DNA from: Cyanobacteria bacterium P01_D01_bin.156
GTDB lineage: Bacteria > Cyanobacteriota > Cyanobacteriia > Phormidesmidales > Phormidesmidaceae
Length of the DNA stretch: 64,000 nucleotides
Assembly: GCA_039024555.1 (NCBI GenBank)
Contig: JBCCQQ010000002.1
Coordinates: 160,001-224,000, forward strand
Direction of reading: 5' to 3'
This document shows, in pieces, positions 30,318-42,192 of this stretch; within the stretch, counting starts at the first letter, position 1; the number at the start of each line of letters is the position of its first letter. The notes beneath the pieces are model-generated. The model saw only the letters and a program-made list of their open reading frames with translations. It had not been told where the DNA came from and searched no databases. A program made the translations under genes and the position numbers.

Positions 30318-32156
30318 CTATTCCCACTCATTAAAGGTGGGCGGAGCCTGTCGTTGACTAGACCGACGAGTATCTTGCCAAGCGCTACCAATGCCCTGCA
30401 AAATGCCGCGCCCCACCAAACCAATGCCGCGCCCCACCACTTCAGTCAGAACATACACGACACTACTGCCCACCAGTGCAACCAATGCCCGTACCCGTGG
30501 ACTCAACGCATCACGAGTTTCCAACAGCAGAGTCATGGCCCAGGGTAACCCAGACAACCGATCGAGTTCTGCACGCCGGGGGGCATATACGGGCGTTAGC
30601 AAAATACCGCGAGGTCCTAAGGTATATAAGCGATACTGACTTTCAAACATGGCCGTGGGGTCATTGACCAATCGATTCCAGCGATAGCGCCAGGAAAGAT
30701 CATTACGAAATCGCTCAATGTCTCGGGTGGAAATCAGCCGCCGACTATACAAACCTTTTTTGATCACCTCAACATCGGCAAGGCGATTGAGCAGGGGCTG
30801 CATTACCCCATTACCCATCTGAATTAGCAGATTTTCCAATAGTTTTTCACTGTGAGCCAACGCTTCAGGAGCTGTCGCGATGTAACTTGTACCTTCAACC
30901 ACCATGGCATCTTGAAATAGCCAGTGGGAGAGCAGTTCAGGCACTAGGGGAATGGGCTTGAGAATTTCTCGCTCGACGACTTCTTTTTCGTTATAAAGAA
31001 CCGCCACCAGTTCCTGTTCCACACCGTTCAGTGGAACCGTATAGTAGCGACCAAAAAATTCTTCTATAGTGGCCACCCACAGATCACGCAAGATTTGTGG
31101 CGATTTTTCCCGTAGCTGTCCTGGCTGGGGAACAGACTGACGTAAATCATCGAGTAAGTCTTCAAATCGACGCAGAATAATAAATAACAGCTCTCGTTTT
31201 TTATCGAGACGCAAAATATCGATTTCTAACGGCTCATCGGTGGTGTTTTGCAAGTCGGTTTGCAGCTTAGCAAACACAGCTTCGAACACCATATTCTGGA
31301 CATCACCACTGCGCAAACTCAGGGGCGCAGACTCTGGTTTAGTCAGTGCTGCCGCTGCACCTAAAGAAGAGGGCACCCCTCCAGGTCGCTGTCGAGGAGG
31401 CTCTGCTGCACGGCGAGAGAGGTTTTTGGCCCAACTAGCATCGGGGTATTGTTGGGTAGCCCAGAGCTGGCGCATACACCAGCGGGCAGCTTTAAGTTCA
31501 CGCATTTGCCCCACTAAAACCTGACGTTCCAGCCAAGGTAACCGGGGACGACGTAGGGCAGCCGTGGTTTTAGCAAGCTGTTGATCAATTTTGTCCAGGC
31601 CCGCCAGCCGCATGCTTAACCGCATGGCAGTCAGCGGTCCAGGAATTTTAGACGGTAGCTGGGGGCGTTTCGGCGTGGGTTCACGCTGGCCCCTGGCCAC
31701 AGAACGAATTAACTGAGCCAGTTCGCGCACAGGCATACTGCGGGTGCCATACCCATCAGCGCCCACTTGACGAGCGGCGGCTTCTAGCACTGGCTCTGCG
31801 CGGGCACTCAGCACCAAAACCGATAGTTTAGAAAACTCAGTTTTGATGGATTTACACAGCTGTAGCCCAGAACTGTTGACAGGGTCAGTTCCAGCCTCGT
31901 TAGCACCCAAGCCCAGATCAACAATCACCAGGTCAATGGTAGATTTTCCACGCAGGGTGGGATCGGTAAACGCTTGGGCTTGAGTGCGATCGCACTTTCT
32001 AATAATCGCTATGGCTTCAGCTGCAGTAGCTGCCTCAGCCGCGATTTGAAACCCTGGCAGCTGCTCCAACCATACCCGCAGTCCCAATCGAAAGGTGGGG
32101 TCTTCATCCACCAGCATCAATTGCAAGGGTCGTTCGCTCATGCCACCTGATTCCAT
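30318..32156 (-). CDS. Ycf55-like protein: receiver domain plus DUF3685
   Basis: N-terminal LMLVDEDP receiver; STRDIERFRNDLSW and GRGIGLVGRGILQGIG. Confidence 0.85.
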   Translation of the reverse strand: MESGGMSERPLQLMLVDEDPTFRLGLRVWLEQLPGFQIAAEAATAAEAIAIIRKCDRTQAQAFTDPTLRGKSTIDLVIVDLGLGANEAGTDPVNSSGLQLCKSIKTEFSKLSVLVLSARAEPVLEAAARQVGADGYGTRSMPVRELAQLIRSVARGQREPTPKRPQLPSKIPGPLTAMRLSMRLAGLDKIDQQLAKTTAALRRPRLPWLERQVLVGQMRELKAARWCMRQLWATQQYPDASWAKNLSRRAAEPPRQRPGGVPSSLGAAAALTKPESAPLSLRSGDVQNMVFEAVFAKLQTDLQNTTDEPLEIDILRLDKKRELLFIILRRFEDLLDDLRQSVPQPGQLREKSPQILRDLWVATIEEFFGRYYTVPLNGVEQELVAVLYNEKEVVEREILKPIPLVPELLSHWLFQDAMVVEGTSYIATAPEALAHSEKLLENLLIQMGNGVMQPLLNRLADVEVIKKGLYSRRLISTRDIERFRNDLSWRYRWNRLVNDPTAMFESQYRLYTLGPRGILLTPVYAPRRAELDRLSGLPWAMTLLLETRDALSPRVRALVALVGSSVVYVLTEVVGRGIGLVGRGILQGIGSAWQDTRRSSQRQAPPTFNEWE

Positions 32157-32213: not shown

Positions 32214-34088
32214 CTAGTCACGATCGTGGTCATGGGACTCCTCTTCATCGTAGGTTTCTTCTTCTTCGTAGTAGTCATCCTGTACCGCTGGAGCTCTGAG
32301 GGATTCAATATAGGCTCGCTCAGCATCCCAAATGGCAATGGAGTTACGCGCTTCACGATATAGAGCACGCCCTGGGGCAATTTGAGCAGCTACCACGATC
32401 GCATCCGATAGTCGCCCTTGGTAAGCTAGCTCCTCTGCCTCAATCAAAATAGGCCGATCCTGAGCAATCTGAATGCGCGTAATCCATTCTTGAATGGAGC
32501 TTTGGGCTTGACTGTATAGCGCCCGTCCCTCTTTAATTTTGCGCGCTTCTTTAATGGCATCCTGCAGATTACCTTTGCTAGCTAGCTCCAGCGCCTTGCT
32601 ATACAAGGGCTGGTCCTCTAGGACCTGAATCTGCTTAGTCCATTGAGCCACTTTTGTTTGGGCATCCACCCGTAGAGCCCGACCCAATTCCACCTTTTGC
32701 GCTTCTGCGATCGCAGCCTGCAGGCTAGCCTTATCTCCTTTATCAGCCAGCTGCTGCGCCCTGGCTAACAGGGGCCGATCTTCAATCCGCTGAATTTCCC
32801 TAGACCAGTGGGCGATCAGGGTTTGGGCCTGCTGCCGTTGCGGGCGCTCTGCATCAATTTTCTGAGCTTCTCCAATAGCCACCTGCAACGATGCCTTCTG
32901 ATTCAGCTTGGCCATCAATGCTGCACCATAGAGTGTTTGCAAATCCTCTAGTTGATCAGTCCATTGTTCTAGCTTGACCTCAGCCTCAAGATGAAAGGGA
33001 CTGCTACTATCAATCCCTTGGACAGCCTGAATGGCATCCATCAGATTCACAATATCTCCGTAGGTGGGCACCCACTGTTGGTTAAATGAGGCCAATCGTT
33101 GCGCATGGGCCAGCTGCACCAAATCTTTTGCCTCGGGGGCAACCTCCATATCCACCGGCACCTGCTGAATAATGGCTATGGCCCCAGCCAGATCTTCTTG
33201 CTCCCACTTCTGGAATCCATAGTTCAGCAACCTATTGGACCATTCTTCTATCAAGGGTTTAGCCTCTGGCCAGGCATGGCTTTGCACATCCATTTGCCTC
33301 ACTAGACCCAACGCTTCCGCTAGCTCATCCATGTCACCACTGTCAGCTAACGCTTGGGCTCGCAGTAGATTGCGGCGGGCATCTTCTTCTGTTTGAATGT
33401 GCTGCCCTAAATACTGGTACTGGTCTTTAAGCCAATAGTCACTGGTCAGGCGTTTAATATCCCGCAGCTGTTTACGGGCACCGCTCCAGTTTTGGTTACT
33501 GACCGCTGTTTTAACAGCGGCTAAAATCTCTTCACCCGTGGTCCATTCTTGCTGCCACTGTCCTAGGGCTGTTTTTGCCTCTTGAGAAATCTCGGCGCGC
33601 TCAGGAATATACCCCAGTAACTCCACTGCCCGCTCTAAGCTACCAGCCTGCATACGCTGCTGGGCGAACTTAAACAATCCTTTGGACCAACGGTTGGTGA
33701 CATCCTGCGAATCTTGATACAGGGGATGGCTTTCTTGCCAGTCAGCCACCAGATTTACCCCAGCGACCAGATCTTCCTCAGCACCGGAAACCGCCGCCTG
33801 ACGAGCACAGTAAAGCCGCTCGCTGTCAGCACTAAATCTAAAGATGCGATCGCAATTGGGCAAAGGGGGTAAACGCGTCATAAACGCCATCGCCCAGATT
33901 CCTAATGTGCTAGAAGCTGCCAGCAATAGCAACCATAGCAAAGGCCAAAACCACATATGACGCCGCTTGGGCGCTGAGGCGGTAGCAAGCATTGCATCTC
34001 CCTGGGAAATAGGGGAAGCAAACTGTTGTGGGTCCGTAGGCGTAGCTGTCATGAACGACGGTATCCCAGAAGATAAAGGGTCACACAA
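32214..34088 (-). CDS. Conserved cyanobacterial membrane-anchored helical-repeat protein; start uncertain
   Basis: TM segment, LPPLPNC...RLYCA, repeated AIxxAxxIxxGRALY units. Confidence 0.75.
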   Translation of the reverse strand: MCDPLSSGIPSFMTATPTDPQQFASPISQGDAMLATASAPKRRHMWFWPLLWLLLLAASSTLGIWAMAFMTRLPPLPNCDRIFRFSADSERLYCARQAAVSGAEEDLVAGVNLVADWQESHPLYQDSQDVTNRWSKGLFKFAQQRMQAGSLERAVELLGYIPERAEISQEAKTALGQWQQEWTTGEEILAAVKTAVSNQNWSGARKQLRDIKRLTSDYWLKDQYQYLGQHIQTEEDARRNLLRAQALADSGDMDELAEALGLVRQMDVQSHAWPEAKPLIEEWSNRLLNYGFQKWEQEDLAGAIAIIQQVPVDMEVAPEAKDLVQLAHAQRLASFNQQWVPTYGDIVNLMDAIQAVQGIDSSSPFHLEAEVKLEQWTDQLEDLQTLYGAALMAKLNQKASLQVAIGEAQKIDAERPQRQQAQTLIAHWSREIQRIEDRPLLARAQQLADKGDKASLQAAIAEAQKVELGRALRVDAQTKVAQWTKQIQVLEDQPLYSKALELASKGNLQDAIKEARKIKEGRALYSQAQSSIQEWITRIQIAQDRPILIEAEELAYQGRLSDAIVVAAQIAPGRALYREARNSIAIWDAERAYIESLRAPAVQDDYYEEEETYDEEESHDHDRD

Positions 34089-34389
34089 AATCTAGGACAA
34101 TCAGGCTACGTGTGAATCCTGTAAAACACACCCTTAGCCTGATTGTTTTAACGCAGAGTATCAGGCCAATAAATAGCCCATTTAGCTAAACTCGCTAACA
34201 CTTACCTCAAAAAAGCATGGGAAACATTTGTTACTAGAGCAAATTTCCCCACTATTTTGACTGGGAAAGGTATGAATTTAGAGGGTTAAACCAAAAAATT
34301 TTGCTGTCATTGTAGTGGCAATTGACAGGAATACACAGGTTTCGACAAAAACCTTTGCTTAGAAAAATATTTAGTATCTCAAAAAGACT

Positions 34390-35016
34390 ATGTACGGTGC
34401 TAATCCGCTAAACAAACACCCCATGGAAGGATTTTCACAGATTTGTTTTATCAAAAACACTGTTTCAAATCCCAACATTGTCATCGGTGATTACACTTAC
34501 TACGATGACCCCGAAGACTCAGAAAACTTTGAACGCAATGTGCTGTATCACTTTCCATTTGTGGGAGATCGATTAATCATTGGCAAGTTTTGCGCCATTG
34601 CTCGGGGTGTCAAATTCATTATGAACGGTGCAAACCATCGTCTAAATGGATTTTCTACCTATCCTTTTGAGATTTTTGGCAACGGTTGGGAACTGCCCAA
34701 CGCACCTAAGTTTCCCTACAAAGGAGATACGGTGATTGGTAATGATGTTTGGATTGGCTATGAAGCGGTGATTATGCCGGGTGTTCAGGTGGGCGACGGT
34801 GCAGTGATTGCAGCTAAGTCGGTAGTAGCTAGCAATGTTCCGCCGTACACCATTGTTGGTGGCAATCCTGCTAAATGTATTCGCCAGCGATTTGAGTCCG
34901 ATGTCATTGAAACACTACTCACAATCGCCTGGTGGAACTGGGATATTCAAAAAATTACTCGCAGCTTAGACAAAATTATCTCGGCAGATATCGAGGCCCT
35001 GCTAGCTTGCGAATAG
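34390..35016 (+). CDS. Vat/CatB-like xenobiotic O-acetyltransferase (hexapeptide repeat)
   Basis: GDYTYYDD, MNGANH, STYPF, IGNDVWIG, WWNWD. Confidence 0.9.
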   Translation: MYGANPLNKHPMEGFSQICFIKNTVSNPNIVIGDYTYYDDPEDSENFERNVLYHFPFVGDRLIIGKFCAIARGVKFIMNGANHRLNGFSTYPFEIFGNGWELPNAPKFPYKGDTVIGNDVWIGYEAVIMPGVQVGDGAVIAAKSVVASNVPPYTIVGGNPAKCIRQRFESDVIETLLTIAWWNWDIQKITRSLDKIISADIEALLACE

Positions 35017-35067
35017 AGTCAGCGAAGAATAGCTATGATTGATGCATTAGCTTAGGGAGCCTTTGGG

Positions 35068-35664
35068 ATGTCGTCAGCTACTCTAGATACTACTCAGGCC
35101 CTAGGGTTATCTCCTAAGCGTTGGACTTTGGATGAATATCATCAACTGATTGCCCAAGGATTTTTGACCTCTAAGTCTGCTGTGGAACTGATCAATGGAC
35201 AAATTATTGAAATGGTTCCGCAACAGCCACCCCATGCCGCAACGACTGATGAAGGTGGCGACTATCTGAAAGCTTTGTTTGCGGGTAAAGCTAAGGTGCG
35301 GGTGCAGCTACCGGTAACGCTGCCGCCGGATTCGGAGCCGGAACCAGATTTTGCGATTGTTAGGATCGATGAGAATTTTTATCGAGATCGCCACCCCAAC
35401 CCTGACGACATTTATCTAATTATCGAAGTTGCTGACTCTACGCTACGGAAAGATCGGCAGTACAAGTCCCAGCTCTATGCCCAGGCGGGTATTCCAGAAT
35501 ATTGGATTATCAATCTGCAACAGCATCAGGTAATTGTTTATCGACAGGGGCAAGCTGATGGGTATCAGCTGGAGCAGACGTTTGAGGCCACTGATGGGGT
35601 TCAACCCCTGGCGTTTCCAGAGCTGACAGTTGACCTTAAACGGTTATTGATTCTGGCACAGTAA
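35068..35664 (+). CDS. Uma2 family endonuclease (DUF820)
   Basis: ELINGQI, EPEPD, IEVADS, KxxLYAQAGIPEYWIIN. Confidence 0.92.
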   Translation: MSSATLDTTQALGLSPKRWTLDEYHQLIAQGFLTSKSAVELINGQIIEMVPQQPPHAATTDEGGDYLKALFAGKAKVRVQLPVTLPPDSEPEPDFAIVRIDENFYRDRHPNPDDIYLIIEVADSTLRKDRQYKSQLYAQAGIPEYWIINLQQHQVIVYRQGQADGYQLEQTFEATDGVQPLAFPELTVDLKRLLILAQ

Positions 35665-35718
35665 AGACGGTTAAAGCTCATCTTCAATAGTCACCCCAAA
35701 GCCAAAGCAGAACAACCT

Positions 35719-35749
35719 TTCCCCTCCTTGGAGGGGCCACGGGGTGGGT
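35719..35749. repeat. Small dispersed palindromic repeat at the TPR gene stop
   Basis: ttcccctcc-tt-ggaggggccacggggtgggt, resembling common cyanobacterial intergenic repeats. Confidence 0.6.
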
Positions 35750-37281
35750 CAGCCCGTAGAGGCGTCTCCCGATTCTGCTTGCAGTTCTTTGAGCATTTTC
35801 TGGGTCAGCGGATGGTCCGATAGCTCGTCAGTTTTACCGGCTTCGATTACCTGCTTGAGCAAGCCGCGAAAGTTGTTTTTATCTTGTTCAATGTAAGGGT
35901 GTTCTCGCGGGAGCGCTTTCTCATCGATTTCGATAACTCGCACATACAGCGGTTCCGCTTCGCTGTAGCGCCCCATTGACTCGTACAGCCCTGCCAAATT
36001 ATTCAGATCCGTTGCTGTACCAGGATGATCCTTACCTAACCGAGATTCATCAATTTCAATAGCACGCACATACAGCGGTTCCGCTTCGCTGTAGCGACCC
36101 ATTGACTCGTACAGCGATGCCAAATTATTTAGACTCATCGCCGTATCAGGATGCTCAGCTCCCTGTTGCGTTTCTCGGATTTCGAGCGATTTCACCAACA
36201 GCGGTTCCGCTTCACCGTAGCGCCCCATTGACTCGTACAGCAATGCCAAATTATTCAGATCCGTTGCTGTACCAGGATGATCCCTACCTAACCGAGATTC
36301 ATCAATTTCAATAGCACGCACATACAGCGGTTCCGCTTCGCCATAGCGCCCCATTGAATCGTACAGCGCTGCCAAATTATTCAGACTCGTCGCCGTATCG
36401 GGATGCTCAGCTCCCTGTTGCGTTTCTCGAATTTCGAGTGATCGCACATACAGCGGTTCCGCCTCGCTGTAGCGGCCCATTGACTCGTACAGATTTGCCA
36501 ATTCATTTAAGCTCGTTGCCGTATCAACGTGCTCAGGTCCCGACTGTGTTTCCCGTAGTTTCAAAGCTTTCTCATAGGCCGTTGCCGCCTCTGCGTAACG
36601 CACTGCTGTTTCATAAGCAGCTCCCAAATCCATATACAAGCTCGCCAATAAAGGCGACTCAGGATCTTGCGCTTCCAGCTCAGCGATTTGTTTTGAAATT
36701 GCCTCAGGGTCAACACGTGAGCTGTCCGGTGCCTCTTCTGGGGTCTCAATGCGCTTAGCAACAGACTTTTCCCCCAGCGTGACTGCAATCGGCTTAGAAA
36801 ACTCAAACACCCCACCGCGCCAGCTCCAAAAATCCGGCGAGGCCTTAGCCAACTGCCCGGCAACCTGTGGCGTTAGCCACAGCACCACCGGCACCTGAAA
36901 CTGCCGCAGGGCTTCCCGAGTCCACTGCAGCGAAAAAAACAGCTTCTCCTGGGATGATTTTTCATCCTGCCGTAGGCGAATCCCCAACAGCTCATCAGCC
37001 CCCAGCACCGTTACCACCGCATTCTGGTTAGCCAGGTCGGGCTCCTGCTGAGTCAAATTAAACAAACATTGCTTTAAGCTGTACTGCTGCTGATCAACCT
37101 TCACCCGATAGCAGCGGGTCCCCTTTTCCCCTAGCTCAGTCTCATACTGCTCAATCAGCTGAGTCCGATGCTTCCAGTTATCAGAAATCGCCATCAGCAA
37201 ACTCAACCTGCCGTAGCTGGCGTCTATCGCCAGCACCAGCTTACGAAAATTGCGTTTATTGTCTGTCGATTCTTCTGACAT
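35749..37281 (-). CDS. TPR protein (42-aa repeats) with an N-terminal degenerate P-loop-like domain
   Basis: Five near-identical LNNLAxLYESMGRYxEAEPL repeats; N-terminal VPVVLWL...PDFWSWR and no Walker A; ATG at 37281 preferred because the upstream GTG lies in a repeat. Confidence 0.85.
   Translation of the reverse strand: MSEESTDNKRNFRKLVLAIDASYGRLSLLMAISDNWKHRTQLIEQYETELGEKGTRCYRVKVDQQQYSLKQCLFNLTQQEPDLANQNAVVTVLGADELLGIRLRQDEKSSQEKLFFSLQWTREALRQFQVPVVLWLTPQVAGQLAKASPDFWSWRGGVFEFSKPIAVTLGEKSVAKRIETPEEAPDSSRVDPEAISKQIAELEAQDPESPLLASLYMDLGAAYETAVRYAEAATAYEKALKLRETQSGPEHVDTATSLNELANLYESMGRYSEAEPLYVRSLEIRETQQGAEHPDTATSLNNLAALYDSMGRYGEAEPLYVRAIEIDESRLGRDHPGTATDLNNLALLYESMGRYGEAEPLLVKSLEIRETQQGAEHPDTAMSLNNLASLYESMGRYSEAEPLYVRAIEIDESRLGKDHPGTATDLNNLAGLYESMGRYSEAEPLYVRVIEIDEKALPREHPYIEQDKNNFRGLLKQVIEAGKTDELSDHPLTQKMLKELQAESGDASTG
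35900..36530 (-). repeat. 126-bp intragenic tandem repeat, 5 copies, with an A/B alternation (252-bp higher-order unit)
   Basis: ccattga marker at 35973, 36099, 36225, 36351 and 36477. Confidence 0.9.
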
Positions 37282-37295
37282 GACACCTATATTTT

Positions 37296-37316
37296 GGTGG
37301 GCAGTGCCCACCCTAC
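37296..37316 (-). repeat. GTAG-family REP-like element
   Basis: Minus strand GTAG-GGTGGGCA-C-TGCCCACC; its TAG is the ATPase stop codon. Confidence 0.8.
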
Positions 37317-38602
37317 GATTCGATTAATTGTTTCTGTTTTAGCAGCTCTATCACGATGGGGTGGATGTCGTACCAGATGGAATCGTTCTCGTACTCCAGC
37401 ACCATCAGACCATGGAGCAACCGGGTAAATTCTTCACTCCGCGCATCGGGTGTTTCGGCAGTTTCGTAGACCGTTGCCATTAGCTTGTACAAATCACTGC
37501 CAATCTGCCGCGCAAAGTCATTACGCAGGTTACGCAGGGCAATCTTGAGCGTTTCTTGGTTAATGGTGACAACATCATCAGACTCAATGTCGATCTGCAC
37601 CATACATTCCAAACAACACTCCCGAGCCAGCCGCACAATTTCGCGTACCACCCCACCGCTCATCAGCACAATCCGACGCGCAGTTTCGGGCTCTATCAAC
37701 CCCTCAGGAATTCGCTTGTGGATCAGTTCTACAAACGTGTCCACATACTTTGCATCGGGTTCAGCACCCTGCACATGGCGATTCTCCTTGCTAAAAAACT
37801 TGGCCACTGGAAACAGCCGGGGACGCACAATACCCTCTGAATGGAGAGCGCTGAGAACCTTGGTTTCTCGAATAGCCGCAATTGGCACCGTAAAAACAAT
37901 GCGAAACCCAGGAGAAAATAGCGATTTGATGTTGTTGCGAAAGATGGCTTCGGCCAGGGGTAAGTCGAGCTTATCCAGGTCGTCAATGATGACGAGAACG
38001 GGCTGCTTTTTGACGGTTTGGATGGCGGCTGCCACTCGGTCACATTTCTGCACTAAGTCCGAAATCTTTTTAGAAAAGGTCTTTTCTAAGTCGTCGCGAA
38101 AGCTCTTTTCTTGCTTCAGGCTCAGATCGATGATTTGTAAGGCTTTAGTGCCAAAGCCCATACTCCCTTTGGTACCCTCGCTAGATACCTGCTTGCGCAC
38201 GGTAGAATTCCAACCCAGCAGCGTTTCACGCACATCCTCAGAGACGTTAATTTTTTGCTTGCTGGCATAGCTCAGCAGCTGAATGGCGATGGAGTAAAGA
38301 ATATTGGTATGGGTCACCGCCGACATCTCGATCTGGTCGGCAATGGAAAAAAAGACCACCGCATGGCTAGACTGCATATCCACCGACACCTGCTTTAGCA
38401 GCGTGGATTTTCCACAGCCGCGATGTCCCGCAAATACGAACTTGCCGTTAAGCGCAGAAGCATTAATCTCTTGACGTAGTCGCACTTGGACGTCGCGACC
38501 ATAGTCCACCCGAAATTTGTCAATATCCTTCGATTCGATCAGAGGAAACAGGTCCAGATTCTTATATGCCTGTTGAAATTTTTCCAGCCGCGTTTCGCTC
38601 AT
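37313..38602 (-). CDS. P-loop ATPase (AAA+/STAND/KAP-like)
   Basis: Walker A GHRGCGKS, Walker B VLVIIDDLDK, SGGVVREIVRL, C-terminal WYDIHP. Confidence 0.85.
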   Translation of the reverse strand: MSETRLEKFQQAYKNLDLFPLIESKDIDKFRVDYGRDVQVRLRQEINASALNGKFVFAGHRGCGKSTLLKQVSVDMQSSHAVVFFSIADQIEMSAVTHTNILYSIAIQLLSYASKQKINVSEDVRETLLGWNSTVRKQVSSEGTKGSMGFGTKALQIIDLSLKQEKSFRDDLEKTFSKKISDLVQKCDRVAAAIQTVKKQPVLVIIDDLDKLDLPLAEAIFRNNIKSLFSPGFRIVFTVPIAAIRETKVLSALHSEGIVRPRLFPVAKFFSKENRHVQGAEPDAKYVDTFVELIHKRIPEGLIEPETARRIVLMSGGVVREIVRLARECCLECMVQIDIESDDVVTINQETLKIALRNLRNDFARQIGSDLYKLMATVYETAETPDARSEEFTRLLHGLMVLEYENDSIWYDIHPIVIELLKQKQLIES

Positions 38603-38680
38603 GGCATCAGCGCTAACGTCCATAGAATTCTAATCGCACACCGTCCTTACCGCGACATCCGTTAGAGAAAGCCTAGAACG

Positions 38681-38715
38681 AAAAAGCGGCAGGTGATTAA
38701 CACCCACCGCTTTTC
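38681..38715 (-). terminator. groEL terminator
   Basis: aaaaagcgg..ggtg-attaa-cacc..ccgctttt. Confidence 0.7.
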
Positions 38716-38767
38716 GCTAACAATTAATCAATGCTCAAATACACTAACTAATTGATTGCATGGTTGC

Positions 38768-40402
<1,635 letters not shown>

Positions 40403-40461: not shown

Positions 40462-40773
40462 TTAGCCAACAACCGCAAGAATGTCCTTCTCAGATAGCAG
40501 TACATAGTCATCACCACCAAGCTTGATGTCAGTACCGGCATACTTGGAATAAAGCACCTTATTGCCAACTTCCACATCAGGAGCCTGACGAGCACCGTCA
40601 TCACCGCGCTTACCAGGGCCTACAGCAGTGACTTCGCCAACCTGAGGCTTTTCCTTAGCTGTATCAGGTAGCAAAATACCACCAGCGGTCTTTTCTTCAG
40701 ACGCACTGACTTTAATAAGAACGCGATCACCTAGGGGAGTGACGCTCGAAACACTCAAAGAAATGGCTGCCAT
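40462..40773 (-). CDS. groES: Co-chaperonin GroES
   Basis: [28 protein letters not shown]. Confidence 0.98.
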
Positions 40774-40902
40774 AGTTTTCTCCGAACTCTGATAGATCAA
40801 TCATTCGGCAATTTGCATCGAGGCGGACTAAACCCACCTGAGCAGTCCCTTTTACCCACTGAAGTAGCGTTACAGGGAAAGAAGCTGCGACCTAAACACG
40901 GT

Positions 40903-41064: not shown

Positions 41065-41334
41065 TAATTTACGCATTCGTTAGATGCCACAAATTATTGA
41101 ACCAGCAACTTGATACGTAATATCACGTATTTTCAATAAAAATTGATGTCTCTTTTTGATAAAGATTACGTGCTTATACATAAGTATTTTCTGAAAAAAT
41201 GACATCCTTAAATGCAAGAAAACCTATTGAAATCAAGAAATTTAAAACCATTTCAACTCTTTTTTTCAGTGCGTGACCGAGAAAAAGACCAGTATTTTTT
41301 GATACATCCAATCAATTACATAGAGCTTTTGAAT

Positions 41335-42192
41335 ATGCTTGGACTCTCCCACCATCACATTGGCATAGCTAATGTTTTGAGTATTGGCCTGCTAGGACTC
41401 TTACACAACCCATCACAAGCAGCCTGCTTACCTGGTGGCTGCCGTCAAAATGGTCTGGTATTTAGCGAAGCCTCCGATAATTTTGAAATCACGGATGTAA
41501 TGGGTACAGGCACCTCAAACGATCCATTTGTGATTCACCAAGACGTTTGGGGATTAGACATCTCATTAGCAATCGATGGACTACCGCAAGCTCGCCAACA
41601 TTCTGTCTTTGATCGACCAGGGTTCGCCGTTAGCATTGTGGCTCGTAATCTAACCGGAGCTTTTTGGCGGTTCTACGACCACGAGCTCCAAGAGATTCAG
41701 GGGCTTGCCAGCCATGAAAACGACGGCCTATCTTTCGCCCAAGCCATTGCACCGGCTCGTCCTTACACATCTACACATTATTCAAGAGCCGATGAAATCA
41801 CAGATATACGAGATTTCATTAATTTCTATCGGGGTGCTGGTGTAAATCCAGGGGAAACGGTTCGCTTCAACTACTTCGTCACAGATACTATTCCCAACAG
41901 CAGGTTCTACATTCGCCAGCGTCCGGATTATCGCCCCAATGAGACACCGACACCGCCTATTGCTCCTATTCTGGAGCCGCCTGTGTCACCGCCAGCCCAG
42001 CCTTCCAGCCCAGTTACTGCAATATCTACGCCTGCTGAAACATTACCTCCGGTTGCCTCAATACCAGCAACCCAGGTAACACCGTCTCCTTTGTCAACGC
42101 AGGCAGTTCCTGAACCCACAGGTCTCGCTGGAGGTGTGGCCCTTTTCCTATTGAGTACAGTCCAAAAGCGATCAAAAGCGATTAGGTCTTAA
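41335..42192 (+). CDS. PEP-CTERM sorting domain protein; start uncertain
   Basis: Signal-like N-terminus, Pro/Thr-rich stalk, C-terminal VPEP + hydrophobic + basic tail. Confidence 0.8.
   Translation: MLGLSHHHIGIANVLSIGLLGLLHNPSQAACLPGGCRQNGLVFSEASDNFEITDVMGTGTSNDPFVIHQDVWGLDISLAIDGLPQARQHSVFDRPGFAVSIVARNLTGAFWRFYDHELQEIQGLASHENDGLSFAQAIAPARPYTSTHYSRADEITDIRDFINFYRGAGVNPGETVRFNYFVTDTIPNSRFYIRQRPDYRPNETPTPPIAPILEPPVSPPAQPSSPVTAISTPAETLPPVASIPATQVTPSPLSTQAVPEPTGLAGGVALFLLSTVQKRSKAIRS

Follow-up and report, generated by a model that had tools for sequence, protein, structure and literature searches.

A cyanobacterial gene pair for a STAND-type ATPase and a predicted pseudo-ATPase with tetratricopeptide repeats is inherited as a unit and may form a heteromeric sensor

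In a 64,000-nucleotide stretch of DNA from Cyanobacteria bacterium P01_D01_bin.156 (positions 160,001 to 224,000 of contig JBCCQQ010000002.1; hereafter the window), we studied two adjacent genes, A and B, by combining gene-neighbourhood surveys with profile searches, structure models and complex prediction. We found that the two genes pass down, duplicate and diverge together. As modelled, A is an ATPase of the AAA+/STAND type, whereas B opens with a domain of AAA+ base fold that lacks the nucleotide-binding P-loop (the N-domain) and continues into an array of tetratricopeptide repeats (TPRs), and the two proteins are predicted to bind each other. We read the pair as a heteromeric sensor switch that joins an active to an inactive AAA+/STAND-type subunit and has a role in conflict or cell fate, and we put the probability of this reading at roughly 0.55.

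The pairing of the two genes goes far beyond chance. The window's genome holds four A-family ATPase genes with a mutual identity of 24–28%, each directly followed by an N-domain gene (4/4). At 40 of 40 loci from other cyanobacterial genomes, too, an open reading frame (ORF) with the N-domain lies downstream of the ATPase gene on the same strand, at a distance, in stop-to-stop terms, of up to 64 nucleotides in 35 cases and of 132–640 nucleotides in the other 5, which brings adjacency to 44 of 44 ATPase loci. For the survey outside this genome, we chose loci manually from the list of A matches by E-value band and genus, with their neighbours unseen (20 with E < 1e-80 and 20 weaker). Four more loci from close relatives have the same arrangement, and two others end at contig edges. 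We searched 401 genomes sampled from the phylum: 110 carry A, 112 match the N-domain profile, and every A-bearing genome is among the latter; the two genomes with an N-domain but without A have weak N-domain matches, and in one family of the sample (f18) neither A nor the N-domain was found in any of 29 genomes. A preliminary description of the window, made from its letters alone, had tied its proposal to co-occurrence of the two genes in other genomes, which the 40/40 loci and the 110/110 A-bearing genomes bear out.

For 43 pairs, the distances between ATPases follow those between N-domains (Mantel r = 0.945, with 0 of 2,000 permutations as high), and ATPase clusters map one to one onto N-domain clusters. 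Whole pairs were thus duplicated and then diverged without exchange of partners.

The elements of the pair are as follows, in window coordinates, with invariance in A counted over 32 aligned members:

37313..38623, minus strand: gene A, for a 436-residue protein modelled as an ORC/Cdc6-STAND-type AAA+ ATPase with an alpha/beta base, a helical lid and a C-terminal winged helix
38405..38428, minus strand: Walker A, GHRGCGKS, A residues 66–73, with G66, G69, G71 and K72 invariant
37973..37999, minus strand: Walker B, VLVIIDDLD, A residues 209–217, with D214 invariant
37631..37660, minus strand: SGGVVREIVR, which resembles a sensor-2 motif and opens the lid helix, with S322, G323, G324 and R327 invariant; part of the predicted interface with B
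37352..37375, minus strand: WYDIHPIV motif of the C-terminal winged helix, with W417 and P422 invariant and D419 nearly so; modelled strands at 408–412 and 416–420
35749..37281, minus strand: gene B, 510 residues comprising the predicted pseudo-AAA+ N-domain, a linker, six TPR units and a tail; its stop codon is 35749–35751
36787..37281, minus strand: B N-domain, residues 1–165, modelled as an AAA+ alpha/beta base without a P-loop
36811..36840, minus strand: SPDFWSWRGG motif, B residues 148–157, with D150 invariant and predicted interface residues 149–150, 152–158 and 160
35899..36654, minus strand: six 42-residue TPR units of the TPR_10/TPR_12 type, B residues 210–461, with a young 252-base-pair (bp) higher-order repeat

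Judged from its model, A is a complete switch module of the ORC/Cdc6-STAND type, with intact motifs and with neither repeats nor an effector. The AlphaFold2 model is confident (predicted local distance difference test (pLDDT) score of 89.3, predicted template modelling score (pTM) of 0.88) and places the lid at residues 291–388 and the winged helix at 397–430, after which the chain stops at residue 436; the sensor repeats are on B, and A has no effector. A Foldseek search of the PDB with this model gave 116 matches at E ≤ 1e-3, among them Cdc6/Orc1 (2qby_A, 6.2e-7), CED-4 (2a5y_C, 1.8e-6), Cdc6 (1fnn), ORC subunits, the archaeal ATPases 2qen and 2fna, TnsC, MuB-like ATPases and Apaf-1. CED-4, Apaf-1 and Cdc6 align to A across its full length, CED-4 and Apaf-1 about as well as Cdc6. 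The intact Walker A and B motifs were already named in the preliminary description, and the alignment adds T245 and P247 (where strand 4 ends) and R304 to the invariant or near-invariant positions. The WYDIHPIV motif may be akin to the 'MHD' histidine motif of STAND proteins.

At the sequence level, A meets generic and weak P-loop matches in Pfam. NPHP3_N passes its cut-off (29.1 against 24.8 bits), NACHT (24.8 against 26.7 bits) and nSTAND_NTPase5 (21.2 against 34) fall below theirs, ATPase_2 and AAA_16 are marginally under, and NB-ARC has no Pfam match on A. The KAP family (PF07693) matches weakly and in part (25.0 bits against a cut-off of 20; residues 65–228 to profile positions 26–172 of 293). 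KAP family P-loop NTPases have transmembrane helices inserted in the NTPase domain; in A, the insert between Walker A and Walker B (121–208) is polar and charged, has no hydrophobic stretch and is modelled as soluble helices. An NCBIfam scan returned nothing specific (23–36 bits for A and its paralogs against a cut-off of 75 for the Sll1717 family), and a profile search of PDB sequences with A gave P-loop-level matches only, the best being a weak one to DnaC (6.5e-4).

The ORF of B can open at a GTG at 37311, and we took the ATG at 37281 as its start because it agrees with the N-termini of homologues; this leaves a spacer of 31 nucleotides between A's TAG and B's ATG, in line with the co-oriented second gene about 30 bp downstream of the earlier account. 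The N-domain is, by its model, an AAA+ base fold without Walker A, that is, a pseudo-ATPase domain. Its AlphaFold2 model (pLDDT 79.3, pTM 0.75) consists of one helix and a five-stranded alpha/beta domain, for which Foldseek found 33 PDB matches at E ≤ 1e-3, every one of those listed being a P-loop ATPase and nearly all AAA+ (ORC2, ORC/Cdc6, p97, MuB, TnsC and CbbX among them, with E values of about 1e-4 and TM-scores of about 0.45–0.54). With VIA-align 2, an aligner independent of Foldseek, the top 50 matches are entirely AAA+ ATPases at Z scores of 9.0–11.6 (TnsC 11.6, NSF D2 10.7, Cdc6/Orc1 10.7, Avs5 10.3 and the Sir3 AAA+ domain 10.2). The P-loop-like fold that had been predicted for this part of the TPR protein is thus what both searches return, and the alpha/beta N-terminus without Walker A is likewise as first described: the domain contains VPVVLWLT and SPDFWSWRGG and no G-rich loop. 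Strand 1 is followed by ISDNWKHR, which does not match the Walker A pattern GxxxxGK[ST], and 39 diverse sequences have no conserved glycine or lysine there. In the same 39 sequences, R122 and D150 are invariant and L15, L69, G94, P149, W154 and F161 nearly so. B residues 1–165 have no match in Pfam (E ≤ 0.01), in NCBIfam or among PDB sequences.

The 42-residue TPR array seen earlier resolves into six units, and Pfam assigns it to TPR_12 (9.7e-93) and TPR_NPHP3 (186 bits against a cut-off of 100). Tandem Repeats Finder detects periods of 126 and 252 bp, and the 91% identity of the 252-bp two-unit repeat (2.2 copies) suggests a recent duplication within the array. No winged helix-turn-helix (wHTH) was found between residue 165 and the TPRs, and neither HEPN nor GT4 has a match on B.

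The preliminary description had called the pair a 'split' NLR. A is already complete as NTPase, lid and winged helix, and B adds a pseudo-ATPase domain of its own, which rules out one gene cut in two and argues for a two-subunit design. Fusions point the same way: among longer proteins, we found two with an A match at E ≤ 1e-10, one joining a partial A to TPRs and the other an SAV_2336 N-terminal domain to an A-type ATPase without the N-domain, and neither joins A to the N-domain. The earlier interpretation is therefore partly supported: its structural part is sound, namely that the NTPase fold is degenerate, that the genes form an obligate pair and that a heteromer is predicted, whereas defence is unproven and 'split' is loose.

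Complex prediction supports the formation of a heteromer by A and B. We modelled A together with B residues 1–190, each with its own alignment, alongside three controls; the complex scored 0.75, 0.73 and 0.75 and all three controls 0.00, with a partner pLDDT no lower than 78, and the runs shared at least 89% of their contacts. On the A side, the predicted interface takes in residues 16–26, 68–69 (P-loop), 218, 327–346 (the lid helix after SGGxxR), 365–375 and 401–406; on the B side, it takes in 10–26, 126 and 141–160, and with them the conserved APDFWSWRGG motif and its invariant D150. A place in the interface would explain why this motif is the best-kept part of a noncatalytic domain.

In the predicted complex, the N-terminal helix of B and the APDFWSWRGG loop dock on the N-terminal helix, the lid helix and the nucleotide face (P-loop residues 68–69) of A, and B may serve as a pseudo-protomer, capping or completing the ATP site of A. 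In AAA+ proteins, the arginine finger sits on the loop that leads from the fourth main helix into strand 5. As R155 of B lies in the loop that joins the fourth main helix to the fifth strand in the model, and also in the interface with P-loop residues of A, we propose it as a possible trans arginine finger. A protein ligand would bind to the TPR array, which would couple this event to the nucleotide state of A, and a member that ends in TPRs alone, such as the A–B pair, could act by scaffolding or sequestration or through a partner encoded elsewhere. Going by the features of the family, the likeliest role is conflict sensing, directed against invaders or leading to regulated cell death, or else cell-fate signalling, in cyanobacteria with large genomes.

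Several of these features are recorded in the wider family. A has more than 1,000 homologues of about 430 residues, labelled 'P-loop NTPase fold protein' or 'KAP family P-loop domain protein', in named hosts that include Leptolyngbya, Nodosilinea, Pseudanabaena and Alkalinema. The N-domain profile matches 5,455 cluster representatives (50% identity) at E ≤ 1e-3 and 3,178 at E ≤ 1e-10; the Atlas clusters with the domain are mainly cyanobacterial and have no Pfam family across that part, and among the 150 best matches the domain is N-terminal in almost all. The N-domain with its TPRs is a constant module, whereas the C-terminal continuation varies among paralogs. Nothing follows the module in gene B and in most of its orthologue clade; nSTAND1 and WD40 follow it in two pairs of the window's own genome; and elsewhere it continues into NB-ARC and TPRs, NACHT and TPRs, nSTAND1 with PAS, histidine kinase and receiver domains, a CHAT protease, an MMR_HSR1 GTPase or pentapeptide repeats. 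The N-domain also occurs alone, as a protein of 166 residues.

The surroundings of the pair change quickly. The order groEL, pair, 624-residue ORF (orf624) is kept in the closest relatives only (91% identity in one, 80–83% in Leptolyngbya cf. ectocarpi); groEL is absent from the flanks in relatives at 73–75% identity and at 20 of 20 more distant orthologue loci; and in another genus of the same family, orf624 and the DUF3685 regulator gene stand beside groEL without the pair. The pair is thus outside any uniform core synteny, as the proposal of the preliminary description required. Plasmids carry family members as well. On pREC1 of Acaryochloris marina, typed as conjugative, a paralogous pair lies among hicAB, two tyrosine recombinase genes and a NACHT gene, and a plasmid of Nostoc ATCC 53789 has a B-type gene annotated 'ribosome assembly protein 4'. 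Phage records gave no match to A. Several paralogous pairs per genome, variable C-termini, a young TPR repeat, poor synteny, plasmid copies and an A-type module fused to an SAV_2336 N-terminal domain beside a MoxR gene are traits that suggest a conflict-like system, and on our analysis a conflict or cell-fate role is plausible.

As an observation apart, a single in-frame stop codon (TGA, TAG or TAA) interrupts several A orthologues (six recorded cases), while the N-domain gene after each remains intact; pseudogenisation, sequencing error or read-through could account for this.

Several points weigh against a heteromeric sensor with a conflict or cell-fate role. The complex score may partly reflect the model's memory, since the packing of AAA+ protomers is common among solved structures, and its calibration (of 157 solved complexes, 116 attain the score mark, as do 2 of 215 mismatched pairs) holds only roughly here because we used alignments of our own making. 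R155 is an arginine in 30 of 43 pairs and a lysine in 3; none of the 7 members of the nSTAND1-type clade, whose B protein bears an nSTAND1 ATPase of its own, has it; moreover, the complex output lists interface residues and gives no pairwise contact between R155 and the P-loop. The 40 loci are not a random sample, and the Mantel correlation speaks for common descent rather than binding, as the genes are linked and share a history. A whole-genome scan also revealed a fifth N-domain–TPR gene in the window's genome, without an adjacent ATPase gene (669 residues; contig 13, 13547–15562), among housekeeping genes for a bilin reductase, a guanylate kinase, a penicillin-binding protein and phosphoribulokinase; its product may act on its own or team up in trans with one of the four ATPases. 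As for function, the PADLOC matches to A and B are weak and generic, and the pair and most of its orthologue clade have no effector recognisable by Pfam, as the preliminary description had already remarked. The orthologue clade is well conserved (56–86% identity over the best 120, at constant length), and this, together with housekeeping neighbours (groESL and atpD), means that a housekeeping role would suit as well.

The defence role put forward in the preliminary description found little backing in PADLOC-DB 2.0, where no system match was significant: A drew VakA (6.2e-5) and PtuA (1.6e-4) in its P-loop region only, B drew a generic TPR model, and no Avs model matched either protein.

Comparison with known systems places the pair near several and within none. 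The closest description that we found is nSTAND2 (Kaur, Iyer, Burroughs and Aravind, eLife 2021, PMC8195603), a two-gene system in which an active STAND ATPase with a wHTH is encoded 5' and a STAND-like module, its NTP-binding motifs eroded, precedes TPRs in the product of the 3' gene; its authors predict a hetero-multimer and record C-terminal ends that vary. The A–B pair shares this order of an active STAND and wHTH gene and a 3' gene with an inactive STAND-like module and TPRs. However, the inactive nSTAND2 module keeps its wHTH and ends in HEPN or GT4 (PMC8195603), whereas the inactive part of A–B is a 165-residue AAA+ base only, continued by a linker and TPRs, with no wHTH, HEPN or GT4. 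The nSTAND2 table (Fig. 6 source data, PMC8195603) lists proteobacteria, one Calditrichaeota and no cyanobacteria, the group to which A–B belongs.

The iSTAND and iSTAND2 domains (Kaur et al., eLife 2020, PMC7159879; 2021, PMC8195603) are the inactive STAND-type third component of vWA-MoxR ternary systems, which are described as enriched in cyanobacteria and other multicellular bacteria. The A–B pair resembles these in using a catalytically inactive STAND-type domain as a constant, presumably sensing part of a multi-gene NTPase system, but neither a MoxR nor a vWA gene adjoins it and its partner is a STAND/ORC-like ATPase. A locus on plasmid p057_J of Nostoc sp. C057 (2066–7857 of locus L059) comes nearer to the ternary layout: a 428-residue gene, a MoxR ATPase gene and a 975-residue 'SAV_2336 N-terminal domain-related' gene stand in a row, and the last of them ends in 420 residues that form a distant A-type ATPase, its Walker A (GHRGGGKT) intact. 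With its A-type gene beside MoxR, the row resembles a ternary MoxR system built around the A-type ATPase, the upstream gene being a candidate for vWA; a 164-residue gene 3' of the SAV_2336 gene has no match to the N-domain profile.

Other likenesses are structural. The three-domain fold of A is that of ORC/Cdc6 (as in the Orc1–Cdc6 heterodimer, 2qby), and the N-domain matches Cdc6/Orc1 at Z 10.7 and the AAA+-like domain of Sir3 (3te6), an inactive ORC relative, at Z 10.2. AAA+ assemblies that mix active and inactive protomers exist. Unlike ORC/Cdc6, the pair has sequence similarity at the P-loop level only, a context other than replication, a TPR partner and many paralogs per genome. With Avs/AVAST it shares a STAND-type ATPase and a TPR sensor, and the N-domain matches Avs5 (9jap, Z 10.3) and the AVAST5 filament (9nc9, Z 9.4). 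Avs proteins, however, are single chains with an N-terminal effector, whereas here the ATPase and the TPRs are on separate chains, a pseudo-ATPase domain is added and no effector is present. The NPHP3_N match on A and the TPR_NPHP3 match on B, with repeats of the TPR_10/TPR_12 type, recall NB-ARC/NPHP3-type NTPase–TPR proteins, but these are single polypeptides, and A, one of two chains, is below the NACHT cut-off and has no NB-ARC match.

Two named domains were considered as identities for the N-domain and rejected: EACC1, which is a transmembrane helix domain, and EACC2, a constant alpha+beta domain directly before a caspase. In B and in five long paralogs, the N-domain is followed instead by TPR-like sequence, with no caspase or CHAT match at that place. 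Literature searches, with thin coverage of subscription journals, returned no description of this cyanobacterial pair, and a word search of a 2026 survey of defence-associated STAND proteins found no passage on two-gene or inactive-partner forms. The pair appears to be a variant of an active and inactive STAND/AAA+ NTPase system with a TPR sensor, and we file it under no named family.

Three other explanations have to be weighed. A could be a housekeeping AAA+ chaperone or assembly factor for which B, as a TPR adaptor, recruits a cellular complex without any link to conflict. The 56–86% identity and constant length of the best 120 orthologues, the vicinity of groESL and atpD, the orphan N-domain–TPR gene among housekeeping genes, the lack of an effector domain and of a significant PADLOC match, and the presence of Rubisco activase and CbbX among the fold neighbours of the N-domain all fit this explanation, yet we consider it rather unlikely. 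Its spread would be patchy for a housekeeping factor (110 of 401 genomes, 0 of 29 in one family), genomes hold several divergent paralogous pairs, synteny is gone beyond the closest relatives, STAND NTPases, a CHAT protease and a GTPase occur as fusions to paralogs, plasmid copies lie beside toxin–antitoxin and integrase genes, and the fold of A is that of an ORC/STAND switch with a winged helix rather than of a ring unfoldase. That same fold raises the prospect of a DNA-directed initiator or loader, in which A would bind DNA by its winged helix as ORC/Cdc6, DnaC, TnsC and MuB do, and B would regulate it, in replication, partition or the targeting of mobile elements. Cdc6/Orc1, ORC subunits, TnsC and MuB-like ATPases are indeed the best structural matches of A, DnaC is its best, if weak, profile match among PDB sequences (6.5e-4), and plasmid copies adjoin tyrosine recombinase genes; however, CED-4 and Apaf-1 fit A about equally to Cdc6, no transposase, integrase or replication gene lies beside the pair in the window, the constant partner is a TPR protein, the fusions of paralogs are to STAND and WD40, CHAT or GTPase domains and not to DNA enzymes, and several unlinked paralogous pairs per genome ill suit a single replicon function. 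We regard this as very improbable.

Scarcely more probable is an operon of convenience, in which A and B act separately and the predicted interface is an artefact. The complex score is the model's own confidence, AAA+ domains are often placed together from the memory of solved rings, and one lone N-domain gene exists in the window's genome. Against this stand adjacency at 44 of 44 ATPase loci, the near-perfect match of presence and absence over 401 genomes, the one-to-one correspondence of ATPase and N-domain clades, an invariant or near-invariant N-domain surface motif within the predicted interface and the score of 0.00 in all three complex controls.

Beyond the heteromeric sensor switch that we favour, a bolder proposal is speculative, with the odds clearly against it: the pairs may form a large, uncatalogued family of two-subunit NLR-like sensors, in which a pseudo-AAA+ domain on the sensor chain would complete the ATP site of a minimal STAND ATPase in trans through an R155 finger, ATP turnover and oligomerisation would depend on the sensor, and the pairs would be insulated, co-evolved sets, each with an output of its own (STAND and WD40, CHAT, GTPase, kinase or TPRs only). 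If the sensor-switch reading holds, a widespread cyanobacterial sensor design has been missed by family libraries, with an N-domain that has neither a Pfam or NCBIfam model nor a sequence-related solved structure. The switch and the ligand repeats, on separate chains joined via a dead ATPase, would then offer a simple system for studying STAND/NLR coupling, as each half could be mutated and titrated separately, and the N-domain would supply a domain family with which to annotate the thousands of entries now called 'tetratricopeptide repeat protein' or 'P-loop NTPase fold protein'.

Around the pair, the gene order on the minus strand is groES (40462–40800), groEL (38768–40399), A and then B. 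Two folded elements flank or separate the genes:

38677..38718, minus strand: hairpin with a U-run behind groEL, resembling an intrinsic terminator (-25.8 kcal/mol, z -6.4, 0 of 200 shuffles as good), about 55 nucleotides before the start of A
37296..37312, minus strand: perfect 17-nucleotide palindrome GGTGGGCACTGCCCACC in the spacer between A and B (-13.6 kcal/mol, z -2.4, 5 of 200 shuffles as good)

The first agrees with the earlier placement of the pair just past the groEL terminator. The palindrome might pause or process the transcript or affect the translation of B. A consensus scan upstream of A found no convincing promoter; the same scan missed the groEL terminator that folding shows. 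The HIP1 element (GCGATCGC) has 34 sites in the window and none in the pair, which lies in a HIP1-free gap of 6,213 bp (33846–40059). The absence of HIP1 noted in the preliminary description therefore holds, whereas its significance does not: a longer gap of 7,117 bp elsewhere in the same window makes it uninformative and rules out HIP1 depletion as a sign of foreign origin. The GC content across the pair (0.50–0.54) is the same as that of its surroundings.

The neighbours of the pair are groEL, a Uma2 gene, a hexapeptide transferase gene, the unknown orf624 and a DUF3685 response regulator gene, with atpD also in the vicinity; the ORF list and Pfam gave no transposase, integrase or replication gene adjoining the pair in the window. 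The hexapeptide-repeat transferase gene (34390–35016) and the gene for a putative endonuclease of the Uma2 family (35068–35664) separate B from orf624 and are read from the opposite strand. The closest relative has both, and neither was matched in Leptolyngbya cf. ectocarpi, which has about 900 bp from B to orf624; the stretch looks like a small insertion or deletion. The 624-residue ORF, which has no Pfam match (32214–34088), and the receiver/DUF3685 regulator gene (30318–32156) are a conserved couple, found also in two other genera of the family and in one of these directly beside groEL in opposite orientation. Between groES and atpD, a 326-residue ORF (41212–42192) has a proline/threonine-rich linker before its end, VPEPTGLAGGVALFLLSTVQKRSK, which we take to resemble a PEP-CTERM sorting signal (PEP, a hydrophobic helix and basic residues).

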